Shown: positions 4,361-34,317, counted from the stretch's first letter. The stretch is 64,000 nucleotides of DNA from Bacteroidales bacterium (GCA_963668715.1 OY764960.1:719602-783601); one strand, 5' to 3'. Numbers and translations: made by a program. The notes: a model not told the origin generated them from the letters alone.

Positions 4361-4441
4361 GTGTCCGTTTTCGTCGGGATCAGGTGTCCGTTTTGAACGG
4401 GAACAACTGTCCGCTTTCAGCGGGATTTAGTGTCCGAAATC
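4361..4441 (-). repeat. IS21 right-end subterminal repeats (4 copies, 23-bp period)
   Basis: gtgtccgttttc, gtgtccgttttg, ctgtccgctttc and gtgtccgaaatc at 4361, 4384, 4407 and 4430. These are reverse complements of the left-end motif. Confidence 0.85.
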
Positions 4442-4454
4442 GCAGGAATATGCA

Positions 4455-5496
4455 ATTGACTAACTAAAGAAAAGTCACCTGCACCCATTACTTTTTTAAC
4501 TCCTGTATCTTTTGAGCTTTCAAAGTTCCTGGCAATATCTATATTAATAAAGTTGATTATGGCGAGGATAAGTATTCCAAGTCCAACAAAAAAAAGCGTA
4601 AGGACATAGTTCCTGTTTCCATGGACAATATGATCATAATCAATTGGAGTACTAAAATGTAATTTAGAAAGAGGGACCAAATCAACTTTAACCTGGGATA
4701 GCATTCCTTCGGCCTCTTTATTCCCTCCCATTATATTAAATATGGAATGCCTGATTTTTTTAATGACTTCGTTTTTATCAGTATTTTTTCCTAATAAAAA
4801 ATAGCTGTCGCAACTACAGTTTTCATCATTCTCTAAATCCACTTTAGTAAGTTCTTTACATAAACTAAAAGGTAACAGTCCGTCAAATTTTATTGACGAG
4901 TTATCAGGCACATCAGCAAGAACAGCCCGTACAGTTAAGAAAATCGTATCGTTAACAATTAATTGCTTTCCATAAGCAGACGCTTCCCCGAATAATTTCG
5001 TAGAGACACTTTTAGTTATTGCTATAGAATTACGCTCGGTAAGGGTAAGGTTTAAATCGCCATCCAATGTTTTAAACGAAAAAATATCTGCAAAATCTTT
5101 ATTGGCATAAAACAAATTTAAATTGTCAATTTCTTTATCTCCGTATCTAATTTTTAAATTGTCAGAAAAGTACATGCCATGAGTATTGATTAAAGCAATT
5201 TTTAAAATTTCAGGGATGTCCTCTTTAAATTTTTGACTAACGGCGGAATTTATTTCACTTGTTTTTCCGATTGGGGAGTCTATAAATAGCCTGAATATTT
5301 GCGATCTATTATTGTGAAAAGAGTCGTGCGAAATTTCGTTGTATACATAAAGCCAGATTAATAACACAGACGCAAAGGCTACAGAAAGGCCCAGTATATT
5401 AATCAATGTAAATTTTTCCGGTTTAAAAACCCTGTTTAATAAAACTTTAATATGAAATGCTATCACAATTTTATTTTTTGATAACGATTTAATCAA
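4455..5496 (-). pseudogene. ABC transporter permease (FtsX/MacB-type), N-terminal fragment
   Basis: N-terminal TM helix, a large periplasmic MacB-like domain, then the start of an FtsX block (GVKKVMGAGDFSLVSQ) cut by the IS. Restored length is 1042+1373-6 = 2409 nt, which is in frame (802 codons plus stop). Confidence 0.85.
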
Positions 5497-6169: not shown

Positions 6170-6628
6170 TTAGTTTTTTAAAAAGATGTAGCCATTTAAT
6201 GAGGTGGCGATTAATAACCAAATCAAGTAAGGGACTATTAAAAAGGATTTATGTTTTAGTTCGGGCCAGTAAAAGAATAACATAAATCCTATAAGTACAG
6301 TCAGCATGCTAATCAGCAGGAGGCCTCCTGAAATATTTTTATAATAAAAAAAGGTTGGACTCCATCCTATATTTAGGATTAATTGAATGATATACAGACC
6401 AATAAGAAGATTCTTATTCTCAATAACAGGCCATGAATAAGCCATATATAAGCTAAAACAGATCATAATTGTAGTCCATGCTGTTCCAAATACCCAACCA
6501 GGAGGAGTCCATGGGGCTTTATTCAATTCAATATACCAATCAGAGGGGACTCCTTTGCCAGTGAATAATCCTCCTATTGCAAGTGCCCCAAAATTGAGTG
6601 CTAAGAATAAAACAAGTCTAAAAACCAT
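6170..6628 (-). CDS. tspO: TspO/MBR family tryptophan-rich sensory protein
   Basis: 152 aa, five hydrophobic helices, Trp-rich motifs (APWTPPGWVFGTAWTTIM, GWSPTFF) typical of TspO. Confidence 0.85.
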   Translation of the reverse strand: MVFRLVLFLALNFGALAIGGLFTGKGVPSDWYIELNKAPWTPPGWVFGTAWTTIMICFSLYMAYSWPVIENKNLLIGLYIIQLILNIGWSPTFFYYKNISGGLLLISMLTVLIGFMLFFYWPELKHKSFLIVPYLIWLLIATSLNGYIFLKN

Positions 6629-6739: not shown

Positions 6740-7017
6740 GTGTTCGTGAGATGTAGAAATTATGTCTAACGCTTCGCTAAGTTCGCACCGAGGGCGAAAG
6801 CTGCCGGACTTGACCGGGCAGACTGTAAAGCCCGCAAGGGTGGGACCAAGTTGCGTTTAGCAGTATGTTCTATATGTTTCATTGTTACTAATTTAAGAAA
6901 TTATCAGATATGGGAGGGATTATAAAAAATGACTAACGGCGAAAGGCAAAGGGCTAAAGAAGAAGGTTGAGAAAGTTGAGAATGGGTTTAAATGGGTTAT
7001 TTAGGTTATTCATCGTT
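6740..7017 (+). repeat. Intergenic repeat element, divergent copy R3 (core with inserted GNRA-capped hairpins)
   Basis: It shares cgcttcgctaagttcg, ttgcgtttagca, and cattgttactaat..agatatggga..gattataaaaaatgactaa..cgaaagg with R1/R2. The segment between these differs and contains gcgaaagc, ctgccgg..ccgggcag and cccgcaaggg hairpins. Confidence 0.7.
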
Positions 7018-7265
7018 CCATTAATCCATTATTCCATTAATCCATTATTCCATTATTCCATTATTCCATTATTCCATTATTCCATTATTCCATTATTCCA
7101 TTATTCCATTATTCCATTATTCCATTATTCCATTATTCCATTATTCCATTATTCCATTATTCCATTATTCCATTATTCCATTATTCCATTATTCCATTAT
7201 TCCATTATTCCATTATTCCATTATTCCATTATTCCATTATTCCATTATTCCATTATTCCATTATT
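7018..7265 (+). repeat. Tandem 8-bp repeat (ccattatt) x31
   Basis: 28 perfect units at 7042..7265, preceded by ccattaat/ccattatt/ccattaat variants. It sits where R1/R2 carry other low-complexity modules. Confidence 0.97.
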
Positions 7266-7266
7266 C

Positions 7267-7300
7267 AAAAAAAGGCGTGAACCTCACGATCCACGCCTTT
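7267..7300 (-). terminator. Rho-independent terminator of the cytochrome operon
   Basis: On the minus strand: stem ggcgtg/cacgcc (7274..7279 pairs with 7292..7297) followed by a run of 7 T. It begins 20 nt after the stop of the 7320..7736 gene. Confidence 0.7.
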
Positions 7301-7319
7301 CATTCAATAATCAGTCACC

Positions 7320-7736
7320 TTATTTTTTGAATGTTCGCATATAGTTTACCATGTGCCATATGTCGGGGTCAGGTATCTTACCTTCGTAAGCTGGCATTTC
7401 GTCGCGACCAAACTTGGTTTTATAGAAATGTTCTCCGTCTGTCTGATCCTGATAGCCCGGTCCGGAAAAATCTCCGGCAAATGTCTTGAGCGCCCTGGCT
7501 TTTACACCGTCACCCAGCCCTGCTTTTCCATGGCATGATGCACAATTACGTTTGTAAAGCCCTTCTCCTTTCTGAATGCTTTCAGCATTAGCTTCAACAG
7601 GGTTTTCCATACTTTTATACTCAGCAGGCACTTCCCATGGTTCGGGCATCTTCTGCCTCTGAGGAGTCATAGAAACAAGTCCGAAGCCAAGTCCTGTCAG
7701 TAACAGAAAAAATGTAAAAAATTTCAGTGTTTTCAT
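7320..7736 (-). CDS. Class I c-type cytochrome (monoheme), periplasmic
   Basis: Signal peptide, a single CASCH heme motif, a downstream Met-containing segment (DEMPAY), 138 aa. Confidence 0.8.
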   Translation of the reverse strand: MKTLKFFTFFLLLTGLGFGLVSMTPQRQKMPEPWEVPAEYKSMENPVEANAESIQKGEGLYKRNCASCHGKAGLGDGVKARALKTFAGDFSGPGYQDQTDGEHFYKTKFGRDEMPAYEGKIPDPDIWHMVNYMRTFKK

Positions 7737-7829
7737 AACAGTTTATTTTTTATCCATTATTAATAATACAATTATCATGCAAAATATTTATTCATACTCT
7801 TCTCATAATCAATATGAACTAAGCTTAGT

Positions 7830-8456
7830 CTAATCATGTTCTTCATGATACCCGTTAATCATACTCCTGAACAATGTGCCCGGTTTGTCACCGAGTGTAC
7901 ATGTGTAAATATGTATAACGAGGAAAACCGAAAGAACAAACCCGACAATAATATGCAATAAATCGGTTATAAGCAGGCCGCTGACCCCGAAGAACTGCTT
8001 TATAGTTATCTCAGGCAGTAATAATCCTATGCCCGTAATAATGATCACCGGCATACCCAGGTACATTACCATTACATAGGATATTTTCTGAAGCGGATTG
8101 AACTTCTGGTTCTCCGTTACCGGAAAAGGGTGTTTTTCTTTTCTGAACATCCCGAAAGCATAGAACTTAAACTGAGTAAACAGATCGGCCCAGAAACTTT
8201 CCTTTTTAATCTTATAGTGCCTGTTGTTTTTGCTAACAATATTCCCTGTCAGAAATACAAGATAGTTAAAAACAAGTATTACGGCACAAACATTATGCAG
8301 CGTCACTGCATTCTGAAAAGTGATAAGCGAGAAAGACCTGTCGCCGCCTGCAAACTGCATGCTTATACCAGTAAAGATCAGAACAAGAAACAGCACGGCA
8401 TTCAGCAGGTGCCATAACCTTATCCAGACCGGATATAGATATAGTTTTTTTCCCAT
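7830..8456 (-). CDS. Membrane b-type cytochrome (Ni/Fe-hydrogenase/PhsC-like cytochrome b family)
   Basis: 208 aa with four TM helices carrying conserved His (RLWHLLN, TLHNV, LLHIIVG..VIHIY). Its start codon is 4 nt downstream of the stop of the multiheme cytochrome gene. Confidence 0.7.
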   Translation of the reverse strand: MGKKLYLYPVWIRLWHLLNAVLFLVLIFTGISMQFAGGDRSFSLITFQNAVTLHNVCAVILVFNYLVFLTGNIVSKNNRHYKIKKESFWADLFTQFKFYAFGMFRKEKHPFPVTENQKFNPLQKISYVMVMYLGMPVIIITGIGLLLPEITIKQFFGVSGLLITDLLHIIVGFVLSVFLVIHIYTCTLGDKPGTLFRSMINGYHEEHD

Positions 8457-8459
8457 TTT

Positions 8460-9443
8460 TTAACTCCTCCTTATTATTCTGAAAAATATATGTACCAGTA
8501 CTACCAGTACTACTCCGGCGAAAATGATATAGCTTAGTATGTTCAGTATAACATTCCTGTTGGCCCCGATAACATACGACTGGTTAAATATCACACCATT
8601 CAGGAAGCCCACATCAGTCCTTATTTCCTTACTCTGGTATTTATAAAGTGTTGCCAGCAGGCGTGAATCGGATGAATGACATTCCGTACATTTTTTCACA
8701 GCCTTGTCTTTCGGCAACAGCTTGTGTGCTACAAGTATGCTGTCGCTGATCTCAGTATGACATTCTATACAGCGGACATTCATAAAATGAGACGTCTGGT
8801 TTGGCAGCCATTCATGGGTTTGTACTATCTCCTTTTTCTCATTATCGCTCAAAAGCTTGAAATTATCATAATTAGAGTGGCATTCGAGACATATATTATT
8901 ATCATATAAGATTGTTTCCTCCAGGCTGGTAGTATTTCTTATATTTATCTCATAGCTATGTGGATCGTGGCATTTCCAGCATGTGAATCCTTCGATATCA
9001 TGATGAACGCTCTCCTCGTACTCGGCCCTTATCTCTTCAAAATTAAACATCGTGTACTGCTCGTCATACGCATGACAGTCATTACAATGATAGGGTTCCT
9101 CCAGTCTTGCCGAAGTGGGATGCGGAAATATTTCCATATCATATGAATGGCAATCGGTGCAGGCAAAGCTCCAGTGGTTTGAATGATAATAACTGTCTCT
9201 GTCGATATAGTAATCATCACACATCATACGTTTCTGAGTGACACCCAGTGTCGTATCGGTAAGTTCATAATAAGTTTCGCCATGACAAACAAGACATCTC
9301 TCATTATCCTCCGCAAACATACTGTTTTCTATGCCTTTCAGCACCTGGCTTTGTTCTTCGGGCTCCTGCAAAACAGGTCCTTTGTTATCTGTTAAAAAAA
9401 TAACAGATAACAATGCTGACAGTAATGTTAAAACTAACTTCAT
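8460..9443 (-). CDS. Heptaheme c-type cytochrome with C-terminal membrane anchor
   Basis: Signal peptide. Seven CxxCH motifs (CLVCH, CTDCH, CNDCH, CWKCH, CLECH, CIECH, CTECH). C-terminal TM helix (ILSYIIFAGVVLVVLVHIFF). Confidence 0.85.
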   Translation of the reverse strand: MKLVLTLLSALLSVIFLTDNKGPVLQEPEEQSQVLKGIENSMFAEDNERCLVCHGETYYELTDTTLGVTQKRMMCDDYYIDRDSYYHSNHWSFACTDCHSYDMEIFPHPTSARLEEPYHCNDCHAYDEQYTMFNFEEIRAEYEESVHHDIEGFTCWKCHDPHSYEINIRNTTSLEETILYDNNICLECHSNYDNFKLLSDNEKKEIVQTHEWLPNQTSHFMNVRCIECHTEISDSILVAHKLLPKDKAVKKCTECHSSDSRLLATLYKYQSKEIRTDVGFLNGVIFNQSYVIGANRNVILNILSYIIFAGVVLVVLVHIFFRIIRRS

Positions 9444-9456
9444 AAAGCTCCTTTAT

Positions 9457-10326
9457 TTAGAATCTTACAGTGATATTCATCCCGACCAGGAATTCTCCGT
9501 CCCAGAAATCGTTTTTATTATAGACGAAGTTTCTTTGTCCCAGTATACCTTTATAATTGGCAAGGAACAACTGAAATGCATGGGTTGCCGTTCCTTTCTC
9601 CCATCCTATAACTATCTGGGGTAGCGTTCTTTCAAAATTATCAGTTCCGTCACCGTCGGGATCCGTATCAGGCGGTGTAAAAAGGTAATCGTATTCGAAA
9701 ATAATTGAGTGTGACGGAACAAAAGTGAATTTACCACCTGCATGCAGACCGAAATTAGCATTATCGTATCCTGTCTCAACGGCATTAAGGTAAATAAATG
9801 TCGGTGCCAGCTGTAACGAGATCGCCTCGGAAAATTTCCTTGCTACAATTATCTGATGAAAATATGATAATTTATGTATGAATTTAAAATTTTCCGCAGG
9901 TCCGAAATTATCATCCGACCTGGCTTCAACAGCCACATTTCCATAGTAGGTAACCGATACGGGTATGCGTCCCGACTCCGTCTGTTGCAGAATGGCATAT
10001 TTACCCTGTACATCCCAAAGGCTCAGGTCCTTTGTCGCCCCTCCCCCTACCATGATCCTGTCGGTAATTCCATAGTTCAGGCCCAGTCTGATATTTGAAG
10101 GAGAATAAATACCAAAGAGAGACTTTGAACCGTTGGTCACAAGCCCGAAGCGGTGATGTATCTCAAACTCCATCAAACCTTTAAAAGGAGTCATTACTGT
10201 TTGGTTATCACCCAGGATACTCGTCTCAAAAGTAAACATAACGGGATAATCCTCTTCCTCCTCCTGGGAGAACACAGGTAATGCAAGCAAAGCAAGTAAT
10301 AATAGTGAGAGTATTTTTTTCATCAT
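9457..10326 (-). CDS. Predicted outer-membrane beta-barrel protein (DUF5777-like, from memory)
   Basis: Signal peptide ending VFSQ, alternating amphipathic strands, C-terminal ..NITVRF aromatic terminus typical of OMPs, 289 aa. Confidence 0.55.
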   Translation of the reverse strand: MMKKILSLLLLALLALPVFSQEEEEDYPVMFTFETSILGDNQTVMTPFKGLMEFEIHHRFGLVTNGSKSLFGIYSPSNIRLGLNYGITDRIMVGGGATKDLSLWDVQGKYAILQQTESGRIPVSVTYYGNVAVEARSDDNFGPAENFKFIHKLSYFHQIIVARKFSEAISLQLAPTFIYLNAVETGYDNANFGLHAGGKFTFVPSHSIIFEYDYLFTPPDTDPDGDGTDNFERTLPQIVIGWEKGTATHAFQLFLANYKGILGQRNFVYNKNDFWDGEFLVGMNITVRF

Positions 10327-10348
10327 TGTCGGTTTTTGTTGTTAATTA

Positions 10349-10750
10349 TTAATTATCCGGTGCACCCTGATATATCCAGTCAAGTAAAGTTGTTCTGTCT
10401 TCCGTGCTCCAGGTCCCTCCATGACCAGGATCGTCAATTTTAACTATCACTGTACTTTCCACAGGACTTTCCATATTCAGATATCCTCCCTCAGTAAGTG
10501 ATTCATATGATTCCGATTCCTTCAGATTGGGCGAGATTGCTCCTCCGTGACAATCCGTGCAGTTATACGCAGGAAACAGCGGGGCAATATCCTGACCATA
10601 ATAAACCGTATCATATGGCTGGGTTATATCGGGTGGCACATAAACAGGCGGGTCATAATTATACTTCTCGCATGCAGTAAACCCGATTATGGCCGTAATC
10701 AGCATTGTAAAAAGAAAACCGGTCACGACCTTAATTTCTTTTATTCTCAT
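10349..10750 (-). CDS. Small monoheme c-type cytochrome lipoprotein
   Basis: Lipobox-like GFTAC after a hydrophobic signal, a single CTDCH motif, 133 aa, first gene of the operon. Confidence 0.65.
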   Translation of the reverse strand: MRIKEIKVVTGFLFTMLITAIIGFTACEKYNYDPPVYVPPDITQPYDTVYYGQDIAPLFPAYNCTDCHGGAISPNLKESESYESLTEGGYLNMESPVESTVIVKIDDPGHGGTWSTEDRTTLLDWIYQGAPDN

Positions 10751-10822
10751 CTTGCTTTTCAGATTAAAGAGTAAATTCAGTTTAGTAATATACTTCGTAA
10801 ATATATCTTATCTAAAGATGAG

Positions 10823-10838
10823 TGCATATGTGGAGCCG
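10823..10838 (-). promoter_or_regulatory. Candidate sigma-54 (-24/-12) promoter for the cytochrome operon
   Basis: The minus strand reads cGGCTCcacatATGCA against the consensus TGGCACG-N4-TTGCW. GG-N10-GC spacing is preserved, with mismatches at the other consensus positions. About 74 nt upstream of the ATG and directly downstream of an NtrC-type activator gene. Confidence 0.4.
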
Positions 10839-10883
10839 CAAATACATTTACATATATATAACTGATCTTTATGGCGTTTATAA

Positions 10884-10897
10884 TTGACATAAGTCAA
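10884..10897. promoter_or_regulatory. Perfect palindrome TTGAC-ATAA-GTCAA (candidate enhancer-binding-protein site)
   Basis: 14-bp dyad about 46-59 nt upstream of the candidate -24 element. A further attgacg half-site lies near 10930. Confidence 0.3.
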
Positions 10898-11030
10898 TGT
10901 TTTTGATATTATTTAACGTATTTATTGCACATTGACGTATTATAGAAGTACAGCCCCCGGCCATGTGTCCCGGTTGCCTGAGGTCGACAGGATCAACAAT
11001 GACAGTACAGGTTATTAACAGTAAGGACAA

Positions 11031-12416
11031 TTAGTCTATCTGCTTGTTATCATGTAACTTGGAATACAAAAGTCTCCTGTTTATTTTAAGGTATTCAGCT
11101 GTTTTTGTCTGATTGTTATCATTCAATGCAAGGGCTTCTTCAATGAGACGTCGCTCCAGTATCCTGATAGTCTCCCTGAATGAGTATCCTTTTTCAATAA
11201 AAGATAAGAGGGATATACAATCATCACCGGCAGAAATGTTCTGCAGAGGGAGCTTATTAATGCTCAACACCCCATTATTAGACGAGACTATTGCACTGTG
11301 TATGGTATTTTCGAGTTCCCTGATATTACCGGGCCATATATATTGATGGAGAATATTATATGTTTCTTCGGCAATGACAAGTTTTCTATCAGGGCTGTAT
11401 TTGGTTATGAAATGATCAAGCAACAGATTTATATCGTCTTTTCTCTCCCTTAGCGGAGGAATATTTATTTTAACCACACTTAACCTGTAATACAGGTCCT
11501 CCCGGAAATTACTATTTGTTGCACCCGGCTCCAGATCCCTGTTAGTAGAGGCTATTACTCTTACATTAACCCTTACAGGCTCAACGCCACCAACCCGGAA
11601 AAACGACTGGCCCTGGAGTATACGCAACAATCTTACCTGCAGGGATTGTGGCATATTATTTATCTCGTCGAGATATATTGTCCCTCCGTTGGCAATTTCG
11701 AAAAGTCCTTTTTTCCTGGCATCGGCTCCGGTAAAAGAGCCTTTTTCGTATCCGAAGATCTCACTCTCAAGGAGGGATTCCGATAAGGCGCCGCAATTAA
11801 TTTTCACATATGGCTTGTCTGCTAACAGGGAATGTCTCTGTATGGCGTCAGCAATAAGCTCCTTACCTGTTCCGCTTTCTCCATATATAAGCACTGTTGC
11901 ATCTGTCGGTGCCACCCGCCCGATAAGCTTAAATATCTCCTTCATTTTTACATCCTTACCAATAATGTAATCCGGAGGGTTCGGGCTGTTTGAATCATTT
12001 ACCAGGGAACGAAGGCTTTCTACCTCTTCAAGGAGGTTCTTATACTCACATGCCCTTTCAACAATCAAAATAAACTCATCAAGCTCAAAAGGCTTCTCCA
12101 GGTAATCGAACGCACCCAGCCTTATAGCCTTCATTGCATATTCACTTGTCCCGTAGGCGGTGAATATTATAACCTGAATAGTTGAAGAAATGGATTTCAT
12201 TTTTCCCAGCACCTGAAGTCCGTTCTCTCCCGGAAGATTAATATCCAGAATAACAAGCTGGGGCAAATACTTTTTGAACTCTCTGACAGCATCCGGACCA
12301 TTATCAGCCTCAATTGTCTTATACCCCAGGGATGTAAGAAGCTCAGATAGATTCTTCCTCATCGACTTTTCATCGTCTACTATAAGTACCCGGCAGGGAA
12401 AATGATCGTTTGTCAT
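11031..12416 (-). CDS. Sigma-54-dependent response regulator (NtrC family: REC + AAA+ + Fis-type HTH)
   Basis: Receiver (LILDINLPGENG), Walker A GESGTGKE, GAFTGA-variant GSFTGA, ELENTI arginine-finger region, C-terminal HTH (TKTAEYLKINRRLLYSKL). Confidence 0.92.
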   Translation of the reverse strand: MTNDHFPCRVLIVDDEKSMRKNLSELLTSLGYKTIEADNGPDAVREFKKYLPQLVILDINLPGENGLQVLGKMKSISSTIQVIIFTAYGTSEYAMKAIRLGAFDYLEKPFELDEFILIVERACEYKNLLEEVESLRSLVNDSNSPNPPDYIIGKDVKMKEIFKLIGRVAPTDATVLIYGESGTGKELIADAIQRHSLLADKPYVKINCGALSESLLESEIFGYEKGSFTGADARKKGLFEIANGGTIYLDEINNMPQSLQVRLLRILQGQSFFRVGGVEPVRVNVRVIASTNRDLEPGATNSNFREDLYYRLSVVKINIPPLRERKDDINLLLDHFITKYSPDRKLVIAEETYNILHQYIWPGNIRELENTIHSAIVSSNNGVLSINKLPLQNISAGDDCISLLSFIEKGYSFRETIRILERRLIEEALALNDNNQTKTAEYLKINRRLLYSKLHDNKQID

Positions 12417-12417
12417 A

Positions 12418-13941
12418 TTACTGAGTTAAAGGTAACCGAATTATACATCTCACACCACCCTCTTCATAATTGAAAATGGTTAGTTCGCCATTATGCGCTT
12501 TTATAATTTGTTCGGAGATACTAAGCCCCAAACCCACTCCTGATTTTTTAAGAGTAAAGAAAGGTACAAAAATTTCATCCAATGCTTCTTCAGGTATTCC
12601 TGATCCGGTATCTGTTATTTCGATAACTACAGATTCATTCACCGGATCATATTCTGATCTCACATTAATCATTCCTTTTTCATGTAATGACTCATATGCA
12701 TTATTAAGGATATTTATCAATACCTGTTTTAATGAATTCTCGTCAGCTTCAATAACAGGTATATCAGAAGACAGGTCACATTCAATAATAACATCTTTCC
12801 CTTTGTTTCCCAGGTCCATGAATCTGATTATCTCATCAAGCAAGGAACTGATATCTGTTTTCTTGATATTTTTTTCAATAGGGCGTGAAAAGATGAGCAG
12901 CCTGTTAACAAGTAAGGAAAGCCTGTTTATCTCATCATTAACCAGTTGCATCGAGTCCTCTGATATAAGTGATGCGGTATCAGGATGTTCTTCAAGTTTC
13001 TTCTGCCACATCTGTATCCTGGTCTTTATTATAGCAAGAGGAGTTCTTACTTCGTGAGCCACACCGGCAATTACCCTGCCCAAAGAGGCCATTTTTTCTT
13101 TCTGTACCAGTCTGCTCTCCAGTAGTTTCTTCTGCCTGTCTTCTTCTTCGATGGTGTCAAGCATCATATTGACATTAGAAGCAATATATTTAAATATACC
13201 CCACCTGTTCGTCAGTCTGAGCGAAGTATTCTGACCGGCTCTTTTAAGTTCGTTCCTTATGCCTCTGATCTCTCCGGCCCATACAGTCGAGATAGTCATT
13301 AATATGAGGAAGCCTCCGACAGCAAAAATGGCAATTATAGATACTATCTTCTTCATCTTTATTGCAGGGAGATCCCGCTCTATATGTATCCTGACCCATA
13401 CCGCACCAATAATCCTGGAATCATAGTATACAGGACGTGAAGCGAGGGGAAAAGTAGCCGGATCAAAAGAGTGCAGGCCAATTATAAGGGTGTCTTTTTC
13501 TATTGATCTGACGACCTGATCCCTGATAATATTATAAGACCTTGGAGGCGGACCGTATGCAGGTACCGGCGGAGGGGAAGTTGGAAAGGAATAACCGAAA
13601 AATTCATCCTGGGCAATCAGGTAATATGAAGCTTCCAGCCCCTGCCGCACCTTCATCTGTTCGGAAGTAACCATCCCGAGTCTGTTTTCAAGTAAGGTTC
13701 TTTCGCGGGATGTCAGGTCATCCTTGTCCAGGAGACCCGATTGCCCGAGCCGTTCTATTTCATCAGTTCCCGCATCATATAAACTGTTAAGGTAACTTTT
13801 GCAAACCTGCTGACTTTCTTCAACCAGCTTTACTTCCCATTTTGATAACGATATGTAGATAACAACAGTGACCAGTACAACAATAACGGTAAAGGTTATT
13901 GAGTAAAAGAATAATGAATCATATAGACGGTGTAACTTCAT
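12418..13941 (-). CDS. Sensor histidine kinase (two TM helices, periplasmic sensor domain, HisKA + HATPase)
   Basis: H-box AHEVRTPLA, N/G boxes (NILNNAYES, DTGSGI, GVGLGLSI), TM helices near residues 10-32 and 200-222. Its stop lies 1 nt from the regulator start. Confidence 0.9.
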   Translation of the reverse strand: MKLHRLYDSLFFYSITFTVIVVLVTVVIYISLSKWEVKLVEESQQVCKSYLNSLYDAGTDEIERLGQSGLLDKDDLTSRERTLLENRLGMVTSEQMKVRQGLEASYYLIAQDEFFGYSFPTSPPPVPAYGPPPRSYNIIRDQVVRSIEKDTLIIGLHSFDPATFPLASRPVYYDSRIIGAVWVRIHIERDLPAIKMKKIVSIIAIFAVGGFLILMTISTVWAGEIRGIRNELKRAGQNTSLRLTNRWGIFKYIASNVNMMLDTIEEEDRQKKLLESRLVQKEKMASLGRVIAGVAHEVRTPLAIIKTRIQMWQKKLEEHPDTASLISEDSMQLVNDEINRLSLLVNRLLIFSRPIEKNIKKTDISSLLDEIIRFMDLGNKGKDVIIECDLSSDIPVIEADENSLKQVLINILNNAYESLHEKGMINVRSEYDPVNESVVIEITDTGSGIPEEALDEIFVPFFTLKKSGVGLGLSISEQIIKAHNGELTIFNYEEGGVRCIIRLPLTQ

Positions 13942-13993
13942 GGCCCCGGGTACCGGAAAATGTAATTATAAAAACACGAATAATTAGTTTTAT

Positions 13994-14001
13994 CAAAGAT
14001 A
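13994..14001 (-). promoter_or_regulatory. Candidate -7 promoter element TATCTTTG (TAnnTTTG) upstream of the kinase gene
   Basis: Exact TAnnTTTG match on the minus strand, about 50 nt upstream of the kinase ATG, in the 74-nt gap after the racemase-like gene. Confidence 0.3.
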
Positions 14002-14015
14002 CATAACATACCTTA

Positions 14016-15008: not shown

Positions 15009-15115
15009 ATTATAAGCGCTGTTTTAAGGAACCAGGGGCCCCATTGCTGAAAACTCCAGCAATAACAGCCCCCGGTTTATTATTAATCAAATCCCATAAC
15101 GGATCTTTTGCTTTA

Positions 15116-16492: not shown

Positions 16493-16522
16493 TTTTCTGA
16501 ATATTAAGTTCAACACAATCGT

Positions 16523-19705: not shown

Positions 19706-19804
19706 AAATTAATTTTTAGGTGAATGATTAAGGTTTAGTATTGATATTTAAAATTTGTCACTAATTGTTATTCATCTTTAGTATTGTTTTTATTACAAGT
19801 ATCG

Positions 19805-22421: not shown

Positions 22422-22469
22422 ATTTACATATTATTTAAGTCATTTCTGTCAGGGTCAATCCATAAATAC

Positions 22470-24170: not shown

Positions 24171-24204
24171 TATTATTCTGTATTGAGGTTAGTTATTGAG
24201 GTCT

Positions 24205-24750: not shown

Positions 24751-24762
24751 ACTGAAAATTAT

Positions 24763-25887: not shown

Positions 25888-25893
25888 AATTAT

Positions 25894-26043: not shown

Positions 26044-26052
26044 TTTTCAGGT

Positions 26053-27318
26053 TTAAAAAATTAAATTAGATATCTCCTGGGCAAACACAAGTATCAGGAT
26101 GCCCACGGCCATTGATATAGCTATAGGTATCAGGCAAACCTTCAGTATCTTGAAGTGGTTCTTCTCCTCAATTATCTGTGAGGAGTAAGCGCACAGCAGT
26201 GCCGGCGGAGGCATAAGGTCGCCCAGGGCTGCCATCAGTACCAGGGCAGAAGTGACCACCAGTGCACTTTTCCCTATAAAAACATAAACAAGAGGAACGC
26301 CTATTACCGAAGCTGAGCCATAGGCCGAACCCATAAAAGGCATTATGGCGGCTGCAAAATACCTCAGTCCTTCAGGCAGATTAAGCGCCACTACTGCCAG
26401 ATAACCCCTTACTCCCGTAAGAGCCATGCTCTGAAGGAACATGCCTACTCCTATCAGGATGGCCATAACAGGCATAGCGCTTCTTAAAGCTTCTCTTGAA
26501 ACAAGAACAAAATTTAATTTCCTTTTAGTGAATAAGCCCATGATGGCTCCTATCATAAAGATGAGGGGGACTCCCAGATGAGGCAGAATATTATGGAAGC
26601 GTATCTCTCCTATCATATATAATATCACGAAAAACAGAGGCAGGTATACAGTGAAAGGCAGTTTCTCCTCTTTGGAACTCTCAAGCATCTCCTTTACCTT
26701 TTCCGTATTATATCCTGATAAATACCTGTATCTGAAATAAAGAGCCACTATTATGGCAACAGGAAAGGATGCAATAAACAGTGGCCAGCCAAATCCTATA
26801 TAAGGCATGTCAACACCACCGCCGATAATCATCACCGGTATACTAATAGGGGGAGCTACTTCACCGAATACGGCAGCCATGGCTATCAGCCCCCCCACTG
26901 CATGTTTTTTCATTCCGATCTGTAATAATATAGGCGCAGCCAGAACTCCTGTAGTGAGTATACATGTCGATGAAAGCCCTGTCAGCATTCCGGGGAACAT
27001 AACAAAAAAGGTTATTATGATAACCAGTAATGTAGGGCTCCTGTAAAACAACCTCAGTATTCCGTAGCTTATTCCTTTCAGTGCCCCGGTGGCATCCATT
27101 ACACGCATGAAAATCATTGCACTGGAGATGATCATTATTGCTTCCAGAAATCCGAACCCCCCTTCAACAAAATGCCTTAACGGTATTCCATGCCCTCCTG
27201 CTATTGTTCCGATAATTGCAGATAACATCAAAGATACACCGGCAGGCATTTTTAAAACAAAAACACTGACAGCAAATGTTGCAAGCATGCATATAAGGAT
27301 AATCAACTCTATGCTCAT
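26053..27318 (-). CDS. Polytopic permease, DctM-like (TRAP large-subunit / ion-transporter superfamily)
   Basis: 421 aa with ~12 TM helices and a DctM-like pattern (AMIFMRVMDATGA.., FPGMLTGLSSTC..). No DctP or standard DctQ gene is adjacent. Confidence 0.5.
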   Translation of the reverse strand: MSIELIILICMLATFAVSVFVLKMPAGVSLMLSAIIGTIAGGHGIPLRHFVEGGFGFLEAIMIISSAMIFMRVMDATGALKGISYGILRLFYRSPTLLVIIITFFVMFPGMLTGLSSTCILTTGVLAAPILLQIGMKKHAVGGLIAMAAVFGEVAPPISIPVMIIGGGVDMPYIGFGWPLFIASFPVAIIVALYFRYRYLSGYNTEKVKEMLESSKEEKLPFTVYLPLFFVILYMIGEIRFHNILPHLGVPLIFMIGAIMGLFTKRKLNFVLVSREALRSAMPVMAILIGVGMFLQSMALTGVRGYLAVVALNLPEGLRYFAAAIMPFMGSAYGSASVIGVPLVYVFIGKSALVVTSALVLMAALGDLMPPPALLCAYSSQIIEEKNHFKILKVCLIPIAISMAVGILILVFAQEISNLIF

Positions 27319-27342
27319 AAGTACTAAGGTTTATCCTAACTA

Positions 27343-27358: not shown

Positions 27359-27410
27359 TAATTCGTATACTACTGCTCATCAGCATGATACAATATGCCA
27401 GTCATTAAAA

Positions 27411-28600: not shown

Positions 28601-28615
28601 CCTCAAAGTGCAATT

Positions 28616-30394
28616 TCAGAATTTATAGGCATTATCTTCTATCAGCTTACCGGCAATTCTTCTGCGGGCTTCCTTGACATTCACCCCGCCGGTTTCAGAA
28701 AGGTCTTTAACCGCTTTCAGAATATCCCCTGCATCACCGTCATAAATCGAATATACCGTATCCAAAGCCCACTTACGTATCTTCTGTGTGGCATCATAAA
28801 CATACACATCAGTAATATCCCGGTAAATACCGGCATCTCCCTTTATGCTTTCTATCTTTTTCACCCTTAGTGCAAGAGATTCGGAGATATATATCTCCAT
28901 TATGATATCAGAGATATTATTCAATATCTCCTGTTCATGCATAAGTTTACGTTCGTATGTTTTAGATGCTGCATTCAGCAATAATAAGGCTGTCTTTTTC
29001 ATATTAGCCACATAGCCTGATTTTTCTGTAAAGAAGCCGTCGTCAGTCCCTGGCTTATAAACATCGATATCTGCAATATTGCCGGCCAGTTTTTCCGCCT
29101 CCTCGAACAATCCGTATTGCCCCTTCATTGCTCTTTTCATTGCCGTATCGACAACGAGCATCCTGTTTATCTCGTTTGTTCCCTCAAAGATTCTGTTAAT
29201 TCTGGAATCACGGTATCCTCTCTCAATATCCATTTCTGCCGAATAACCCATTCCTCCGTGTATCTGGACAGCCTCGTCAGCAACAAAGTCGAGCATTTCC
29301 GATCCATATACTTTCAGGATAGCTGCTTCAACCGCATAATGAGCAATAGCATCGATTGATGCACGGCCTTTATCACATCCTTCGGATCTGTATTTTTCTA
29401 TAAGGGTATCAATATCCTTACTCACCCTGTATATTGCCGACTCGGCAGCAAAAGTCCTTATCACCATTTCAGCCAGTTTGTGTATGATAGCCCCGAAACT
29501 TGCTATCGTTGTACCGAACTGTTTTCTCTCATTGGCATATTGTACCGAGTCAGTGATAGCCTTCTTCGCAGCTCCAAGTACATTAGCGCCAAGCTTTATA
29601 CGCCCCATGTGCAATATACTTAACGCTATTCTGAATCCTTCTCCCCTCTTTCCCAGCAGATTTGCCGCAGGTACTTTCACATCGTTATAATATATCTGTG
29701 CCGTCGATGATCCTTTTATCCCCATTTTATGTTCATCGGGGCCTACAACAACACCTTCGCTTGCCGTATCCACAATAAATGCACTCAGTACCCTGTCATT
29801 TTCTATTTTAGCAAATACAGTCTGTGTATCGGCAAATCCGGCATTTGTGATCCACATCTTCTGTCCATTCATAATATAGTAATTCCCGTCTTCTGAGGGA
29901 ACCGCATTGGTTTTACCCGAGTTGGCATCGCTCCCTGCTCCGGGTTCTGTCAGACAATATGCACCCAGCAGTTCACCTGTTGCCAGCCTGGTAACATATC
30001 TCTGTCTCTGATCTTCATTACCAAAGTAGAGGATAGGCAAAGTACCTATACCACAATGAGCCATAAAAGCCACCGAGAATGAATAGGCAGCGCCAATAGT
30101 TTCTGCCACGAGCATTTGCGTAACAAAAGATTGACCAAAGCCACCATATTCTTCATTTACAGAAATACCCATAAGCCCCAGTTCTCCCGCCTTCTTAAGC
30201 AGGCTTTTCATCAACTCACGGTCTCCTTTATCCAGGTCATCAAGATGGGGGTATACCTCCGCTTCAAGAAAATCCCTGCATGTCTGAGCAATCATTATCT
30301 GCTCTTCGTCATACTCCTCAGGTATAAAAACATCCCCGGGTTTTACATCTTTTACAAGAAATTCACCGCTTTTCAGGAGTTCTGTATTTTCCAT
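28616..30394 (-). CDS. Acyl-CoA dehydrogenase (long form with C-terminal extension)
   Basis: ACAD blocks (YCLTEPGAGSDA, GQKMWITNA, QIHGGMGY, RINRIFEGTNEI), 592 aa. Confidence 0.9.
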   Translation of the reverse strand: MENTELLKSGEFLVKDVKPGDVFIPEEYDEEQIMIAQTCRDFLEAEVYPHLDDLDKGDRELMKSLLKKAGELGLMGISVNEEYGGFGQSFVTQMLVAETIGAAYSFSVAFMAHCGIGTLPILYFGNEDQRQRYVTRLATGELLGAYCLTEPGAGSDANSGKTNAVPSEDGNYYIMNGQKMWITNAGFADTQTVFAKIENDRVLSAFIVDTASEGVVVGPDEHKMGIKGSSTAQIYYNDVKVPAANLLGKRGEGFRIALSILHMGRIKLGANVLGAAKKAITDSVQYANERKQFGTTIASFGAIIHKLAEMVIRTFAAESAIYRVSKDIDTLIEKYRSEGCDKGRASIDAIAHYAVEAAILKVYGSEMLDFVADEAVQIHGGMGYSAEMDIERGYRDSRINRIFEGTNEINRMLVVDTAMKRAMKGQYGLFEEAEKLAGNIADIDVYKPGTDDGFFTEKSGYVANMKKTALLLLNAASKTYERKLMHEQEILNNISDIIMEIYISESLALRVKKIESIKGDAGIYRDITDVYVYDATQKIRKWALDTVYSIYDGDAGDILKAVKDLSETGGVNVKEARRRIAGKLIEDNAYKF

Positions 30395-30419
30395 TTTAAA
30401 TTTTATTTAATTAATACTT

Positions 30420-31214
30420 TCAGATTTTCAATGCTTTGACTATCAGTTCTGCGATATCCAGGTTAAGAACCTCTTCCTCTTTGTTCTTATACTTCAGCCC
30501 ATCGGTGATCATAGTCATACAAAAAGGACATGCCGTAGCAATTATTTCAGCATTTGTATCAAGTGCATCTTCGGTCCTTTCTATGAAAATTTCCTTTTCA
30601 CCCTTTTCCGCCTCCTTAAACATCTGTGCGCCACCGGCTCCGCAACAAAGGGCACGACTTTTGCTCCTTTTCATCTCTCTGAAATCACCTGTTATCTTTC
30701 CAAGCACATTTCTCGGTTCATCGTAAATTTTGTTTGCCCTTCCCAGGTAACACGGATCATGATAAGTAACCGCTGTAGTCCTTAACTCATTATTATCCAG
30801 GTTAAGCTTACCTGTACTTATCATATCATCAAGGAAAGTAACATAGCTTATTACCTCGAAGTCGGCTCCGAGGTCAGGGTATTCATTCCTGAATATATTA
30901 TAACAATGCGGACAAATGGTTATTACCTTTTTTATATCATAGGCTTTAAAGGTCTCTATGTTTTGCATTGCCTGCATCTGGTAAACCATTTCATTACCGG
31001 CCCTGCGGGCAGGATCACCGGTACAGGTCTCTTCCCTGCCGAGCACTGCATAGCTTACTTCAAGATAAGACAGTATCTTGGCAAAGGCAGCGGCCACCTT
31101 CCTGTATCTGTCATCGAAAGCCCCTGCGCAGCCAACCCAGAAAAGATACTCAGCCCGCTCTCCCCTGCTATGCAGGTCGGCCATTACAGGCACTTCAATC
31201 TTTTTTGTTTCCAT
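30420..31214 (-). CDS. Cysteine-rich (CCG-domain) Fe-S protein, HdrD/GlpC-like
   Basis: Two CCG-type motif regions (..CPHC.., ..LCCGAGG.., ..ACPFC..), 264 aa, 8 nt after the upstream membrane Fe-S gene. Confidence 0.75.
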   Translation of the reverse strand: METKKIEVPVMADLHSRGERAEYLFWVGCAGAFDDRYRKVAAAFAKILSYLEVSYAVLGREETCTGDPARRAGNEMVYQMQAMQNIETFKAYDIKKVITICPHCYNIFRNEYPDLGADFEVISYVTFLDDMISTGKLNLDNNELRTTAVTYHDPCYLGRANKIYDEPRNVLGKITGDFREMKRSKSRALCCGAGGAQMFKEAEKGEKEIFIERTEDALDTNAEIIATACPFCMTMITDGLKYKNKEEEVLNLDIAELIVKALKI

Positions 31215-31222
31215 AAAGGGAA

Positions 31223-32545
31223 TTATTCTTTTATTGCAAGTTCAATATTTTCAGCCCATAGCATCCTGTCTTCAGCAGCATACTGCCATGGAGCGCCGTT
31301 ATTCTCAATATTATTAAAAACGGCTTTAATCTCACCCGGGGCCTGCCCTTCTTCCATCACCAGGTATCTTCTCATATCAATTATCACTTCAGGATGATTG
31401 ATATTCACCGGGCACTCCTCAACGCATGCATTACATGTTGTGCATGCCCATAATTCTTCTTCAGTGATATAATCCCTGAGCAGGCTTTTTGCATCGTCAT
31501 ACTCCCTGTTGTTTTTAACCATACCGGGGCCCTTTTCATTCATTCTTGCCCTGATGTCCATGATTATTTTTCTGGGAGAAAGCTTCTTACCTGTCAGATT
31601 AGCAGGACATACCGATGTGCAGCGACCGCATTGTGTACACGACAGCGAGTCAAGATAGTTTTTCCATGTTACATCCTCAATATCCCTTATCCCGAACCTT
31701 TCTGCCGGAGCATCCTCTGGCGCCGCGCTAAAAGCCGTCTCGGGGTTCATCATCAGCCGGACCTCCCTTGTTACATTATCCATGTTCACCAGCTTTCCGG
31801 CAGGCCTGAGCCTTGACAGGTATACATTGGGTATTGACATGAACACATGGAAGTGCTTGCTATAGGGTAATATATTTGCAAACAGAAATATAAGTACTAT
31901 ATGTGACCACCAGAATATTTCGTGGTATACCAATATTGTATCTGTAGGCGCACCCTTATAAACACCTGCCATCAACGAGCTTACAGGAAACACGCCTGCA
32001 AGGTCATGTCCTGATTTTACAGCATGGGAATAATAAGAAATATTCATCCCCGTCAGGCTCAGCATTAAAAGAAGGATCAGTGTAAGGGCAATATTAGCAT
32101 CAATATGAGATGCTTTCTTCATTTCTATACCTTCAAATCTCTTTATATGTAAGAAGAGACGGCGGAAAAGAAATATTATAATGGAAACAGCCACTATGAC
32201 TGCAAAAATATCGCCTGATGCTATAATAACATCATATACAATACCAAGAAATTTTAAAACTCTTTCAGTACCTGCAAGCCCGTCAATTATCATTTCCACG
32301 CTACCGATAAGGATCACACAGAATCCCCAAAAAACAAGCGCATGAAACAATCCTATGACAGGCATTCTGAATATCTTGGACTGGCCGAATGCCACTTTCA
32401 TCGTAAGGGCAATCCTCCTGCCGGTATCCCTAACCGGGAATGCAGTCCTGGTAAGCTTAAAAAAACGTATCAGCCTTACTGTTGTGAATGAAAAAACACC
32501 AAGTGTTATTAAAAGTATAATAGCGAAAACAATCTGCTTTTGCAT
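31223..32545 (-). CDS. Membrane-integral Fe-S oxidoreductase subunit (polytopic N-terminus + 2x[4Fe-4S] ferredoxin domain)
   Basis: About 5-6 TM helices followed by CTQCGRCTSVCP and CTTCNACVEECP cluster motifs. Confidence 0.75.
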   Translation of the reverse strand: MQKQIVFAIILLITLGVFSFTTVRLIRFFKLTRTAFPVRDTGRRIALTMKVAFGQSKIFRMPVIGLFHALVFWGFCVILIGSVEMIIDGLAGTERVLKFLGIVYDVIIASGDIFAVIVAVSIIIFLFRRLFLHIKRFEGIEMKKASHIDANIALTLILLLMLSLTGMNISYYSHAVKSGHDLAGVFPVSSLMAGVYKGAPTDTILVYHEIFWWSHIVLIFLFANILPYSKHFHVFMSIPNVYLSRLRPAGKLVNMDNVTREVRLMMNPETAFSAAPEDAPAERFGIRDIEDVTWKNYLDSLSCTQCGRCTSVCPANLTGKKLSPRKIIMDIRARMNEKGPGMVKNNREYDDAKSLLRDYITEEELWACTTCNACVEECPVNINHPEVIIDMRRYLVMEEGQAPGEIKAVFNNIENNGAPWQYAAEDRMLWAENIELAIKE

Positions 32546-32567
32546 ATCCTTATTTTTAAAGGCGGGT

Positions 32568-33539
32568 CTAGCTTGATTTAGCTTCTTTAGCTGCCTCCAC
32601 CAGTTTGGGAAGGACTTTCATGGCATCGCCCACAATTCCGTATTTTGCATTTTCAAATACCGGGGCATCCTTATCTGTATTTATCGCCACAATACACCTG
32701 GAAGAGCTAACGCCCGCAATATGCTGTGTCGCTCCTGAAATACCTACGGCTATATACAGGTTAGGAGCTATAATTTTTCCTGTCTGTCCCGTATGTTCTT
32801 CGTGGGGTCTCCAGCCTTCATCAGAAACAGGTCTTGAACAGGCAGTTGTACCACCCAGTACCTCAGCCAGTTCAATAAGTCCACCCCAGTTATCAGGCGA
32901 TTTCATTCCTCTTCCTCCGGAAACTACTATCTCAGCGTCAGTAAGCAACAGTTTGCCTGTTTGTCTGTCGACCTCAAGAATTTCTGTTTTGATCATATCT
33001 GCCTCTGTGTTAAGGCTGATATTTTCAATCTCAGCGGTGTTACCCGACTCAATAATATCATAGGAATTTTGCGCAAGGGTAATGATCTTAAGATCAGACT
33101 TAATAACCACGCTGGCAAATGCGTTACCTGAAAAGACTCTTTTATATACAGTGAAGGGCTCTGTTGATGAAGGCAGTCTGCTCACACCTGCACCCACACC
33201 GGCCTTTAACCTTACCGATAAACGCGGAGCCAGCGCTTTACCTGTATTGTTATTGGATAGAATGATCACTTCTGCACCATGCTTTTTTACCATATCTGAA
33301 ATTACAGCCGTATATGCCTGGCTGTCGAGTCCTTTAAGCCTGTCATCCGACACATTCAATACCCTGGAGGCGCCATAACGCCCCAGGCTTTCCAGTTCAG
33401 CAGTATCGACATTACCAATAGAAAGGGCTGTTACCGAAGTATTCAGCATATCAGCCACACCTTTACCATATGATACAAGCTCGTATGATAATTTTTTGAA
33501 TTTACCGTCCCAGTTTTCCGTATATACCAGTACTGACAT
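32568..33539 (-). CDS. etfA: Electron transfer flavoprotein alpha subunit
   Basis: FAD-binding C-terminal block (VVSGGRGM.., PNLYIAVGISGATQH.AG), 323 aa, adjacent to etfB. Confidence 0.92.
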   Translation of the reverse strand: MSVLVYTENWDGKFKKLSYELVSYGKGVADMLNTSVTALSIGNVDTAELESLGRYGASRVLNVSDDRLKGLDSQAYTAVISDMVKKHGAEVIILSNNNTGKALAPRLSVRLKAGVGAGVSRLPSSTEPFTVYKRVFSGNAFASVVIKSDLKIITLAQNSYDIIESGNTAEIENISLNTEADMIKTEILEVDRQTGKLLLTDAEIVVSGGRGMKSPDNWGGLIELAEVLGGTTACSRPVSDEGWRPHEEHTGQTGKIIAPNLYIAVGISGATQHIAGVSSSRCIVAINTDKDAPVFENAKYGIVGDAMKVLPKLVEAAKEAKSS

Positions 33540-33570
33540 TATCTTATATTTTTATTATTATCAATTAATA

Positions 33571-34317
33571 TCAAATAAGTTTCTCTTTATTCCTGAGAAC
33601 ATTTATTAACTCCCCGGGATTATCGGCATCAAAGAATATGCATGCCTCTTTTGCAGGCGGCATCTCATAGGATACCACTTCAGTAAGCGGTTCCGTATCT
33701 ACAGGTTCAACCAGTTTGATCGGCTTCGACCTCGCCATCATGATACCCCTCATTGCCGCGATCCTCGGTTCTTTTGCAATCCCCTTCTGTACAACAGCAA
33801 CAAAAGGAACAGGCACCTTAACCTTTTCACGCCCCCCGTCAATCTCCCTTGTAATCTTCAATTCACCATTGTCAATTGTAATGGCTGAGACAGCCGATAC
33901 GGAAGGACATTCAAGAAACTCTGCAATCATACTCCCCACAGTGGAACCGTTATAATCACTCGACTCAATACCACACAGTACAATGTCAAAATTATCCTGT
34001 CTGACTACTTCGGCAATCTGCGATGCCACGTAATAAGCATCATAAGGCCCGGAATTAATCCTTATAGCGCTGTCGGCACCTATTGCAAGAGCCTTCCTTA
34101 TTGTCGGCTCCGAAGAAGCAGGCCCCACATGGGCAACCGCTACCGTTTCAATCAGCCCGGGGTTTCCATCTTTAAGCTCCAGAGCACGGGTCAGAGACAG
34201 CTCATCCCATGGATTTATAACCCACTGAATTCCCGTCGTGTCAAGTTTTGAATTATCAGTAAACCTGATCCTGGTTGTTGTATCAGGAACATTACTGATG
34301 CATACAAGGATTTTCAT
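33571..34317 (-). CDS. etfB: Electron transfer flavoprotein beta subunit
   Basis: MKILVCISNVPDTTTRI.. N-terminus, NPWDELSLTRALELK, 248 aa. Confidence 0.92.
   Translation of the reverse strand: MKILVCISNVPDTTTRIRFTDNSKLDTTGIQWVINPWDELSLTRALELKDGNPGLIETVAVAHVGPASSEPTIRKALAIGADSAIRINSGPYDAYYVASQIAEVVRQDNFDIVLCGIESSDYNGSTVGSMIAEFLECPSVSAVSAITIDNGELKITREIDGGREKVKVPVPFVAVVQKGIAKEPRIAAMRGIMMARSKPIKLVEPVDTEPLTEVVSYEMPPAKEACIFFDADNPGELINVLRNKEKLI

Follow-up and report, generated by a model that had tools for sequence, protein, structure and literature searches.

How might a bacterium of the phylum Bacteroidota carry electrons from its quinone pool to the outer membrane? Extracellular and outer-membrane electron transfer is understood chiefly from Proteobacteria and Desulfuromonadota, and to our knowledge no outer-membrane redox machinery has been defined in the Bacteroidota, which are abundant in sediments, soils and guts. 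The question is raised by a five-gene operon in a 64,000-nucleotide stretch of DNA from a Bacteroidales bacterium (GCA_963668715.1 OY764960.1:719602-783601), referred to here as the window, which an earlier note had read as a possible trans-envelope electron conduit. The five open reading frames (ORFs) are present as that note described them, all intact and tightly packed on the minus strand from 10750 to 7320, and encode in order a monohaem lipoprotein (gene 1), a barrel protein of family DUF5777 (gene 2), a heptahaem cytochrome c (gene 3), a four-helix dihaem cytochrome b (gene 4) and a class I monohaem cytochrome c (gene 5). The strong terminator noted at the operon's end is likewise there, a hairpin followed by T7 with a folding energy of -21.3 kcal/mol (z -5.25), which none of 200 shuffled sequences equalled. 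Here we describe the gene content, domain identities, barrel fold and conservation of this operon, together with a gene fusion and the synteny of its relatives. The operon consists of two modules, a CbcBA-type pair (genes 3-4) and a cassette made up of genes 5, 2 and 1, and we propose, with a probability of roughly 0.5, that it delivers menaquinone-pool electrons to the outer membrane without a cytochrome threading through the barrel.

The product of gene 2 has a signal peptide ending in VFS/Q, a mature protein that starts with Gln and Phe as its last residue, and it matches PF19089 (DUF5777) over the whole profile (positions 1-247 of 247) with 227 bits against a gathering cut-off of 23.1. An AlphaFold2 model based on 85 diverse sequences predicts a 12-strand barrel (predicted local distance difference test score, pLDDT, 92.7; predicted template modelling score 0.86) in which the periplasmic turns are short and the N-terminal stretch (residues ~22-51) is ordered, so that the outer-membrane location assumed in the earlier note is also the predicted one. 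The distant family members raised the quality of the model, an earlier version from 20 close sequences having given a pLDDT of 63.5. Barrels of the window's clade also carry a D/G-rich insertion, TPPDTDPDGDGTDNFERT (9619-9681, residues ~216-236), in predicted extracellular loop 5, which resembles calcium-binding DxDxDG motifs and is not found in more distant barrels.

Twelve strands also bear out the suspicion that the barrel was too small for an Mtr-like architecture. The gene set (barrel, lipoprotein cytochrome, multihaem cytochrome) is superficially similar to that of an MtrCAB/Pcc-type complex, whose barrel has a multihaem cytochrome running through it, and shares with it, as an idea, the linkage of quinol oxidation to outer-membrane cytochromes. 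However, the DUF5777 barrel is less than half the size (12 strands against ~20-26, and against 26 for the Mtr barrel itself in the cited literature), there is no inserted periplasmic decahaem cytochrome and no extracellular multihaem cytochrome in the window, and the heptahaem protein is anchored to the inner membrane by its C-terminal helix, beside the cytochrome b. Mtr-like threading is ruled out by the strand count, and we regard a complex of this type as extremely improbable.

The best structural matches to the model are other 12-strand barrels, namely FapF (template modelling score 0.53), NanC (0.51/0.68), Tsx (0.49) and VhGalP (0.48/0.64). Residues invariant across the DUF5777 family include H58, R59, R80, K109, E211, E243 and H249, and we infer which way the conserved residues point solely from the hydrophobicity pattern of the strands. 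By this alternation R59, R80, K109, D105, E211 and E243 would face the lumen, as would a number of conserved Asn and Gln residues, and the invariant H58 and H249, on neighbouring strands, are predicted to face the lipid. A barrel of this kind could belong to a chain confined to the periplasm, in which the CbcBA-like pair and the class I cytochrome c act as a bc1-substitute feeding periplasmic reductases encoded elsewhere, the barrel is a solute channel for a soluble acceptor or cofactor, and the lipoprotein faces the periplasm on the inner leaflet of the outer membrane. NanC, Tsx and the KdgM-type VhGalP are indeed solute channels, a polar, charged lumen is predicted for the DUF5777 barrel, the stretch behind the lipid Cys of gene 1 (C-E-K-Y) is no obvious surface-export signal, and the missing extracellular multihaem cytochrome of the window fits such a chain as well. 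General porins, however, normally pass small acceptors, and a periplasmic chain leaves unexplained both the covalent cytochrome c-barrel fusion of a whole subfamily and the type-9-secreted redox proteins and surface-type multihaem lipoproteins that lie beside related loci (all described below); on this evidence we think it unlikely.

Several observations tie the barrel to its two monohaem partners. A profile search of 1.84 billion representatives (E<=0.001) gave 1,696 DUF5777 clusters at 50% identity, and the organism labels seen were all Bacteroidota except for one metagenome-assembled genome (MAG) labelled Gammaproteobacteria, whose DUF5777 locus bears type-9-secretion cargo. In one subfamily the association with a cytochrome is covalent: P0340 (407 amino acids, aa) is a class I cytochrome c joined to the N-terminus of the barrel, and more than half of its 120 best matches, a Lutibacter protein included, have the same architecture. 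Gene 5, which scores 49.9 bits against PF13442 and 40.9 bits against PF00034 (both above gathering) and whose CASCH haem motif and EMP Met are conserved across 63 homologues, matches the fused N-terminal domain of P0340 with a BLASTP E of 3e-27, and the cytochrome c genes preceding distant DUF5777 genes with E values of 1e-23 to 7e-28. Among ten such distant loci sampled, all without CbcBA (L081-L090), a cytochrome c precedes or is fused to the barrel in nine, the tenth (L085) having no cytochrome c gene at its DUF5777 locus, and one or two small lipoproteins follow the barrel. These distant lipoproteins bear CxxCH or the variants CX3CH and CX4CH and are recognised by a profile of the Bacteroidales gene 1 (E 1e-10 to 1e-18), which itself has a lipobox GFTAC (Cys27), one CxxCH (CTDCH) and a C-terminal W..QGA..N, and which gave no Pfam or NCBIfam family match (E up to 10). 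Since the trio of cytochrome c, barrel and lipoprotein recurs in distant Bacteroidota and is in part fused, it forms one unit, in agreement with the functional tie proposed earlier, and in Bacteroidales the CbcBA-like pair is inserted within this unit. The barrel and the cytochrome c are also the best-conserved proteins of the operon, something unusual in a protein of the outer membrane. Within the closest loci (L001-L008) the barrel is 84-89% and the cytochrome c 77-88% identical, whereas the bc pair reaches 70-79% and the lipoprotein 64-75%. Our literature searches found no paper naming DUF5777 or PF19089, and the searchable literature yielded no description of the DUF5777-cytochrome cassette, its fusion form or its linkage to CbcBA in Bacteroidales.

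The lipoproteins show some variation of their own. Two paralogues occur in L088 (7882-8744) and L090 (7912-8802), one with CxxCH and the other with CX3CH (CVQACH/CVQGCH), and the L089 lipoprotein (9598-10020) has CX4CH (CNGMGCH); in all three loci a conserved x-K/S-D-x-G-P motif follows the lipid Cys. L073 and L076 have a second pair of lipoprotein and DUF5777 genes a short way upstream of the main operon; no bc genes accompany this pair, and a divergent Crp/Fnr gene stands between it and the operon. A likeness of gene 1 to PSCyt1 (Planctomycete-type cytochrome c; CxxCH and a C-terminal W..GA) was not supported, hmmscan giving no match at E<=10.

The distant, oxic-type cassettes have neighbours that bear on function. 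Beside the cassette in L085-L087 lies a lysyl-oxidase-like protein with a Por_Secre_tail (type 9 secretion cargo), and nearby a NapH/CcoG-like Fer4_5 and TPR membrane protein that is a possible inner-membrane electron input; L088 has a multicopper oxidase and L089 has MbnP, each likewise type 9 cargo, MbnP being accompanied by a MauG-like peroxidase (CCP_MauG) and Redoxin. A peroxiredoxin or Redoxin gene adjoins the cassette in L081, L082 and L089, and a TonB receptor is adjacent to it in L082. These neighbours could mean that the cassette serves both to reduce and to move copper or iron at the outer membrane, for instance to provide secreted cuproenzymes with Cu(II)/Cu(I) or in reductive iron uptake, the CbcBA-like pair of the Bacteroidales being only a source of reductant. 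Such metal handling would agree with the copper-protein neighbours of the oxic lineages (lysyl-oxidase-like in three loci, multicopper oxidase, MbnP with the MauG-like peroxidase), with the CcoG/NapH-type Fer4_5 protein, CcoG being a cupric reductase, with the TonB receptor of L082, and with three conserved His and conserved acidic residues in the barrel. We nevertheless consider it quite unlikely: the Bacteroidales loci are without copper proteins and have multihaem cytochromes as partners, the two invariant His are predicted to be lipid-facing rather than lumen-facing, the barrel has no conserved Met or Cys, and copper export is not obviously needed, as type 9 cargo folds in the periplasm. 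Peroxide respiration or detoxification would be another use of the same parts, the two monohaem cytochromes receiving quinol-derived electrons and feeding a peroxidase or reducing H2O2 that enters through the barrel. The peroxiredoxin or Redoxin genes of the three loci and the CCP_MauG of L089 point that way, and so does general background, in that lysyl-oxidase-type enzymes produce H2O2 and cytochrome c peroxidases under Fnr control are known elsewhere. Against this, no peroxidase is encoded in the window operon or the Bacteroidales loci, monohaem class I cytochromes act as donors and not as peroxidases, and H2O2 needs no dedicated channel; we rate this use as very improbable.

What sets the Bacteroidales loci apart from the distant cassettes is the bc pair. 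Gene 3 encodes a signal peptide, exactly seven CxxCH motifs and a hydrophobic C-terminal helix, with Pfam matches to Cytochrome_C7 and c3_2, and among 74 homologues all seven haem motifs are kept and H318 and R322 of the C-terminal helix are invariant. Gene 4, which is separated from it by 3 nucleotides, scores 186 bits against the NCBIfam thiosulfate reductase cytochrome b (NF011582), below the equivalog cut-off of 204, and H16, H54, H168 and H182 are invariant in its 74 homologues. Sequence searches of the PDB with the barrel, the cytochrome b and the lipoprotein yielded no useful match, and the heptahaem protein gave just a marginal one (28pb_A, E 0.003). In Geobacter sulfurreducens, CbcA is a cytochrome c of seven haems, anchored by a C-terminal helix that apparently supplies a His, and CbcB is a four-helix dihaem b usually annotated as ‘thiosulfate reductase-like’; the genes are ordered c then b in a sigma-54 operon with a REC-sigma54-HTH regulator (BccR) nearby, and CbcBA is required for Fe(III) reduction below -0.21 V (Joshi, Chan & Bond, 2021). 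With CbcBA (Cbc5; GSU0594/GSU0593) the window pair shares the seven-haem c with a His in the C-terminal helix (H318), the adjoining PhsC-like four-helix dihaem b and the order c then b. A REC-sigma54-HTH regulator also adjoins the operon in the window, but its connection with the operon is doubtful. The window pair differs in being enclosed by the lipoprotein/DUF5777 pair and the class I cytochrome c, in the four invariant His of gene 4 as opposed to the three reported for CbcB, and, as far as relatives of the window are concerned, in control by an Fnr-type box and regulator instead of sigma-54. CbcBA-homologous clusters have been reported in Bacteroidetes, in Marinilabiliales, Prolixibacter and Labilibaculum (Joshi, Chan & Bond, 2021), and on the strength of that statement and of their architecture genes 3-4 look like a CbcBA-type pair. 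In itself the bc pair is of a kind known before, whose presence in Bacteroidetes had been pointed out, and the quinol dehydrogenase role suggested for it in the earlier note accords with this likeness.

The pair and the cassette remain together among relatives. A scan with one genome per species found 136 of them, and counts are given for 80 retained loci, all from MAGs of Bacteroidota, for the most part with the label Bacteroidales, that come from soils, sediments, caves, groundwater and soda lakes; denominators are the loci extending far enough to show a feature. The lipoprotein gene lies directly upstream of the barrel gene in 78 of 79 loci, and the heptahaem and cytochrome b genes adjoin the barrel in all 74 informative ones. 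A short form, with the cytochrome c gene directly after the b gene as in the window, accounts for 36 of 62 loci, and the other 26 have a long form with three extra genes between b and c, which encode a DsrO-like Fe-S protein (189 bits, cut-off 200), a DsrP/NrfD-like membrane protein and a 291-aa unknown. The DsrO-like and DsrP/NrfD-like genes of the long form resemble the NrfCD modules of DsrMKJOP, Qrc and alternative complex III, whereas the window's short form has no NrfCD-type genes.

Further genes extend this arrangement into an island. A convergent gene for a 5-6-haem lipoprotein is found in 52 of 56 loci and an adjacent Crp/Fnr regulator in all 56; the regulator has an N-terminal Cys cluster, and a fused CcsBA haem lyase usually comes next. 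The 5-6-haem lipoprotein (e.g. L001 14378-15520, minus strand) has a collagen-like G-X-Y linker after the lipid Cys, a weak similarity to domain II/IV of MtrC/MtrF, which is a point of likeness to MtrCAB/Pcc complexes, and a match of 31 bits (gathering cut-off 24) to the C-terminal half of Cytochrom_C552 (NrfA-type), and it may serve as an outlet for electrons at the surface or be a catalytic multihaem protein not described before. Upstream, relatives carry EtfBA, Fe-S/CCG oxidoreductase and acyl-CoA dehydrogenase genes abutting the lipoprotein gene, and a search from the heptahaem side arrives at the same island layout (L091, L092). The window operon is a reduced, short form of this larger conserved island, flanked by rearrangements.

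The synteny survey uncovered no link to a known periplasmic reductase in these relatives. The absence of a catalytic subunit, put forward for the operon in the earlier note, holds for the window, where the five proteins gave no molybdopterin, NrfA, HAO, copper or Fe-S family match in Pfam or NCBIfam and where no CxxCH genes were found in the 64 kb outside the operon (the sole other CxxCH-bearing frame, 26864..27163 on the minus strand, lies out of frame within a DctM-like gene); as a qualification, relatives add the DsrO/DsrP-like Fe-S/NrfD pair and the 5-6-haem lipoprotein. Variants of the island occur in two loci: in L068 the cytochrome b gene is followed by one for a 933-aa cytochrome with 19 CxxCH, and in L091 the gene after that of the class I cytochrome c encodes a NapC/NirT-type cytochrome of 499 aa (10396-11895).

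For the delivery of menaquinone-pool electrons to the outer membrane we infer a direction of flow, a docking site, an acceptor and a membrane side for the lipoprotein as follows. Menaquinol would be oxidised at the four-helix dihaem b (gene 4) in the inner membrane, and the electrons would then run through the seven c haems of the periplasm-facing gene 3 product, the C-terminal helix of which, with its invariant His, would pack against the b subunit. The class I cytochrome c (gene 5) would accept electrons from the heptahaem protein and dock at the periplasmic mouth of the barrel, where the fused forms would hold it, and the end point would be either the lipoprotein haem or a small redox-active solute (metal ion or chelate) in the narrow charge-lined pore. 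The device would then be a Cyc2-like ‘cytochrome at a small pore’ and not an Mtr-like haem wire. In Cyc2, a cytochrome-porin fusion found in iron oxidisers, a single haem plugs a narrow porin at its periplasmic end, with Fe2+ entering the pore, and the criteria for Cyc2 are a polypeptide of at least 365 aa with one N-terminal CXXCH followed by a 16-strand porin (Keffer et al., 2021). The proposed device would share with Cyc2 one haem at the periplasmic end of a barrel too narrow for cytochrome passage, and a DUF5777 subfamily is likewise a cytochrome-barrel fusion. The differences lie in the strands (12 as opposed to 16), in the full class I domain (~110 aa) in place of a short N-terminal haem segment, in the additional monohaem lipoprotein and, in the window, in the parts being separate genes. 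No sequence relationship was detected between the DUF5777 cassette and Cyc2, and the cassette is neither a Cyc2 family member nor an MtrCAB/Pcc complex.

A broader and more tentative idea, which on present evidence we would not bet on, is that DUF5777 and the two monohaem cytochromes make up a third and minimal kind of trans-outer-membrane electron device, Bacteroidota-wide, after Mtr/Pcc and Cyc2. The class I cytochrome c, whether fused or free, and the lipoprotein cytochrome would then sit at opposite ends of the 12-strand barrel and trade electrons with surface partners, which would be multihaem lipoproteins in anaerobic Bacteroidales and type-9-secreted copper oxidases in oxic lineages. 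H58 and H249 could belong to a cofactor site within the membrane or to an interface between subunits that spans the gap.

A surface-directed role is favoured by the multihaem lipoproteins encoded beside the cluster in anaerobic Bacteroidales and by the type-9-secreted partners of the oxic lineages. Several points weigh against delivery of electrons to the outer membrane. Electron passage across that membrane, or out of it, is hypothetical, and a barrel of 12 strands, as modelled, could not hold a haem domain. The lipoprotein may face either the periplasm or the surface. The copper-protein and peroxide-handling neighbours of the oxic-type loci fit other functions equally well. Gene 5 has an N-terminal hydrophobic segment without a clear cleavage site and might be anchored by it in the inner membrane. 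Finally, no genes for the 5-6-haem lipoprotein, Fnr or CcsBA were found anywhere in the 64-kb window.

The features of the window are collected below.

Features of the operon and its flanks in the window (positions counted from the first nucleotide of the window)
Feature	Position	Strand	Basis or remark
Intrinsic terminator	7267..7300	-	Folding energy, z-score, T7
Gene 5, class I monohaem cytochrome c, 138 aa	7320..7736	-	PF13442, PF00034
Gene 4, CbcB-like four-helix dihaem cytochrome b, 208 aa	7830..8456	-	PF01292 E 5e-25
Gene 3, CbcA-like heptahaem cytochrome c, 327 aa	8460..9443	-	Seven CxxCH
Gene 2, DUF5777 outer-membrane barrel (predicted), 289 aa	9457..10326	-	PF19089 E 2.7e-67
Gene 1, monohaem lipoprotein, 133 aa	10349..10750	-	ORF; lipobox and CTDCH
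Weak sigma-54-like -24/-12 match CGGCTCCACATATGCA	10823..10838	-	GG-N10-GC spacing; doubtful
Fnr/Crp-type palindrome TTGACTTATGTCAA	10884..10897	-	~135 nucleotides upstream of gene 1
Sigma-54 response regulator (REC-sigma54-HTH)	11031..12416	-	Pfam/NCBIfam domains
Histidine kinase	12418..13941	-	Domains; directly upstream of regulator
EtfB, EtfA, Fe-S, CCG-domain and acyl-CoA dehydrogenase genes	28616..34317	-	Pfam

The window's acyl-CoA dehydrogenase (592 aa) is 74% identical to the L011 copy that abuts the lipoprotein gene, and the order of the Etf and acyl-CoA dehydrogenase genes is the same in L091 and L092; this block is the ancestral upstream neighbour of the operon, displaced by ~18 kb in the window. 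The block forms a quinone-reducing input module, so that a short but complete respiratory chain may be encoded on the ancestral island. The stretch that separates the two (10750-28616), which most relatives lack, encodes the sigma-54 regulator and the kinase, Asp/Glu racemase-like, SusD, SusC and gamma-glutamyltranspeptidase proteins, and Mur-ligase-like, AstE-like and DctM-like proteins. It has the look of inserted DNA, perhaps a locus for the use of peptides or poly-glutamate that has a two-component system of its own.

Expression of the operon is probably anaerobic, through the Fnr-type box. A TTGAy-N4-rTCAA sequence occurs at the same relative position in L001, L003, L004, L006, L008, L009, L014, L015, L043 and L052, and boxes with at most one mismatch from TTGAT-N4-ATCAA were found in 21 of 78 upstream regions, where ~2 would be expected (0.026 per 260 nucleotides), so that TTGACTTATGTCAA is a probable ancestral control site. 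The CGGCTCCACATATGCA match, by comparison, is confined to the window, no relative having one, and sigma-54 control of the operon is doubtful. The regulator-kinase pair is shared only with L008, where it lies 4.8 kb upstream, most relatives having an acyl-CoA dehydrogenase gene in its place, and it is uncertain whether the pair belongs to the cytochrome system.

Downstream of the operon, 31.4 tandem copies of the 8-mer TTCCATTA (7016-7266) directly follow the terminator, at the position where close relatives have the 5-6-haem lipoprotein and Fnr genes, and a spurious 125-aa ORF with PLFHYSII repeats (6967..7344, plus strand) arises from the array. Checks of the 6.7-6.9 kb spacer against Rfam, for tRNAs and for folding turned up nothing. 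Beyond it lie a TspO/MBR family gene (6170-6628) and a MacB-type periplasmic-domain ORF (4417-5496) that has a TTG start and looks truncated.

The DUF5777 family, with ~1,700 clusters, is paired with c-type cytochromes and at times fused to one, and in anaerobic Bacteroidales a CbcBA-type quinol oxidase is firmly linked to it. The Geobacter CbcBA has been put forward as a marker of metal respiration; the present findings caution against taking cbcBA homologues on their own as evidence of it. Our searches of the literature on multihaem cytochromes, barrels and extracellular electron transfer in Bacteroidales found nothing relevant. We regard the cassette as a variant of the porin-cytochrome idea with a hypothetical function, and it provides a concrete, genetically testable candidate for the movement of electrons to the Bacteroidota cell surface.

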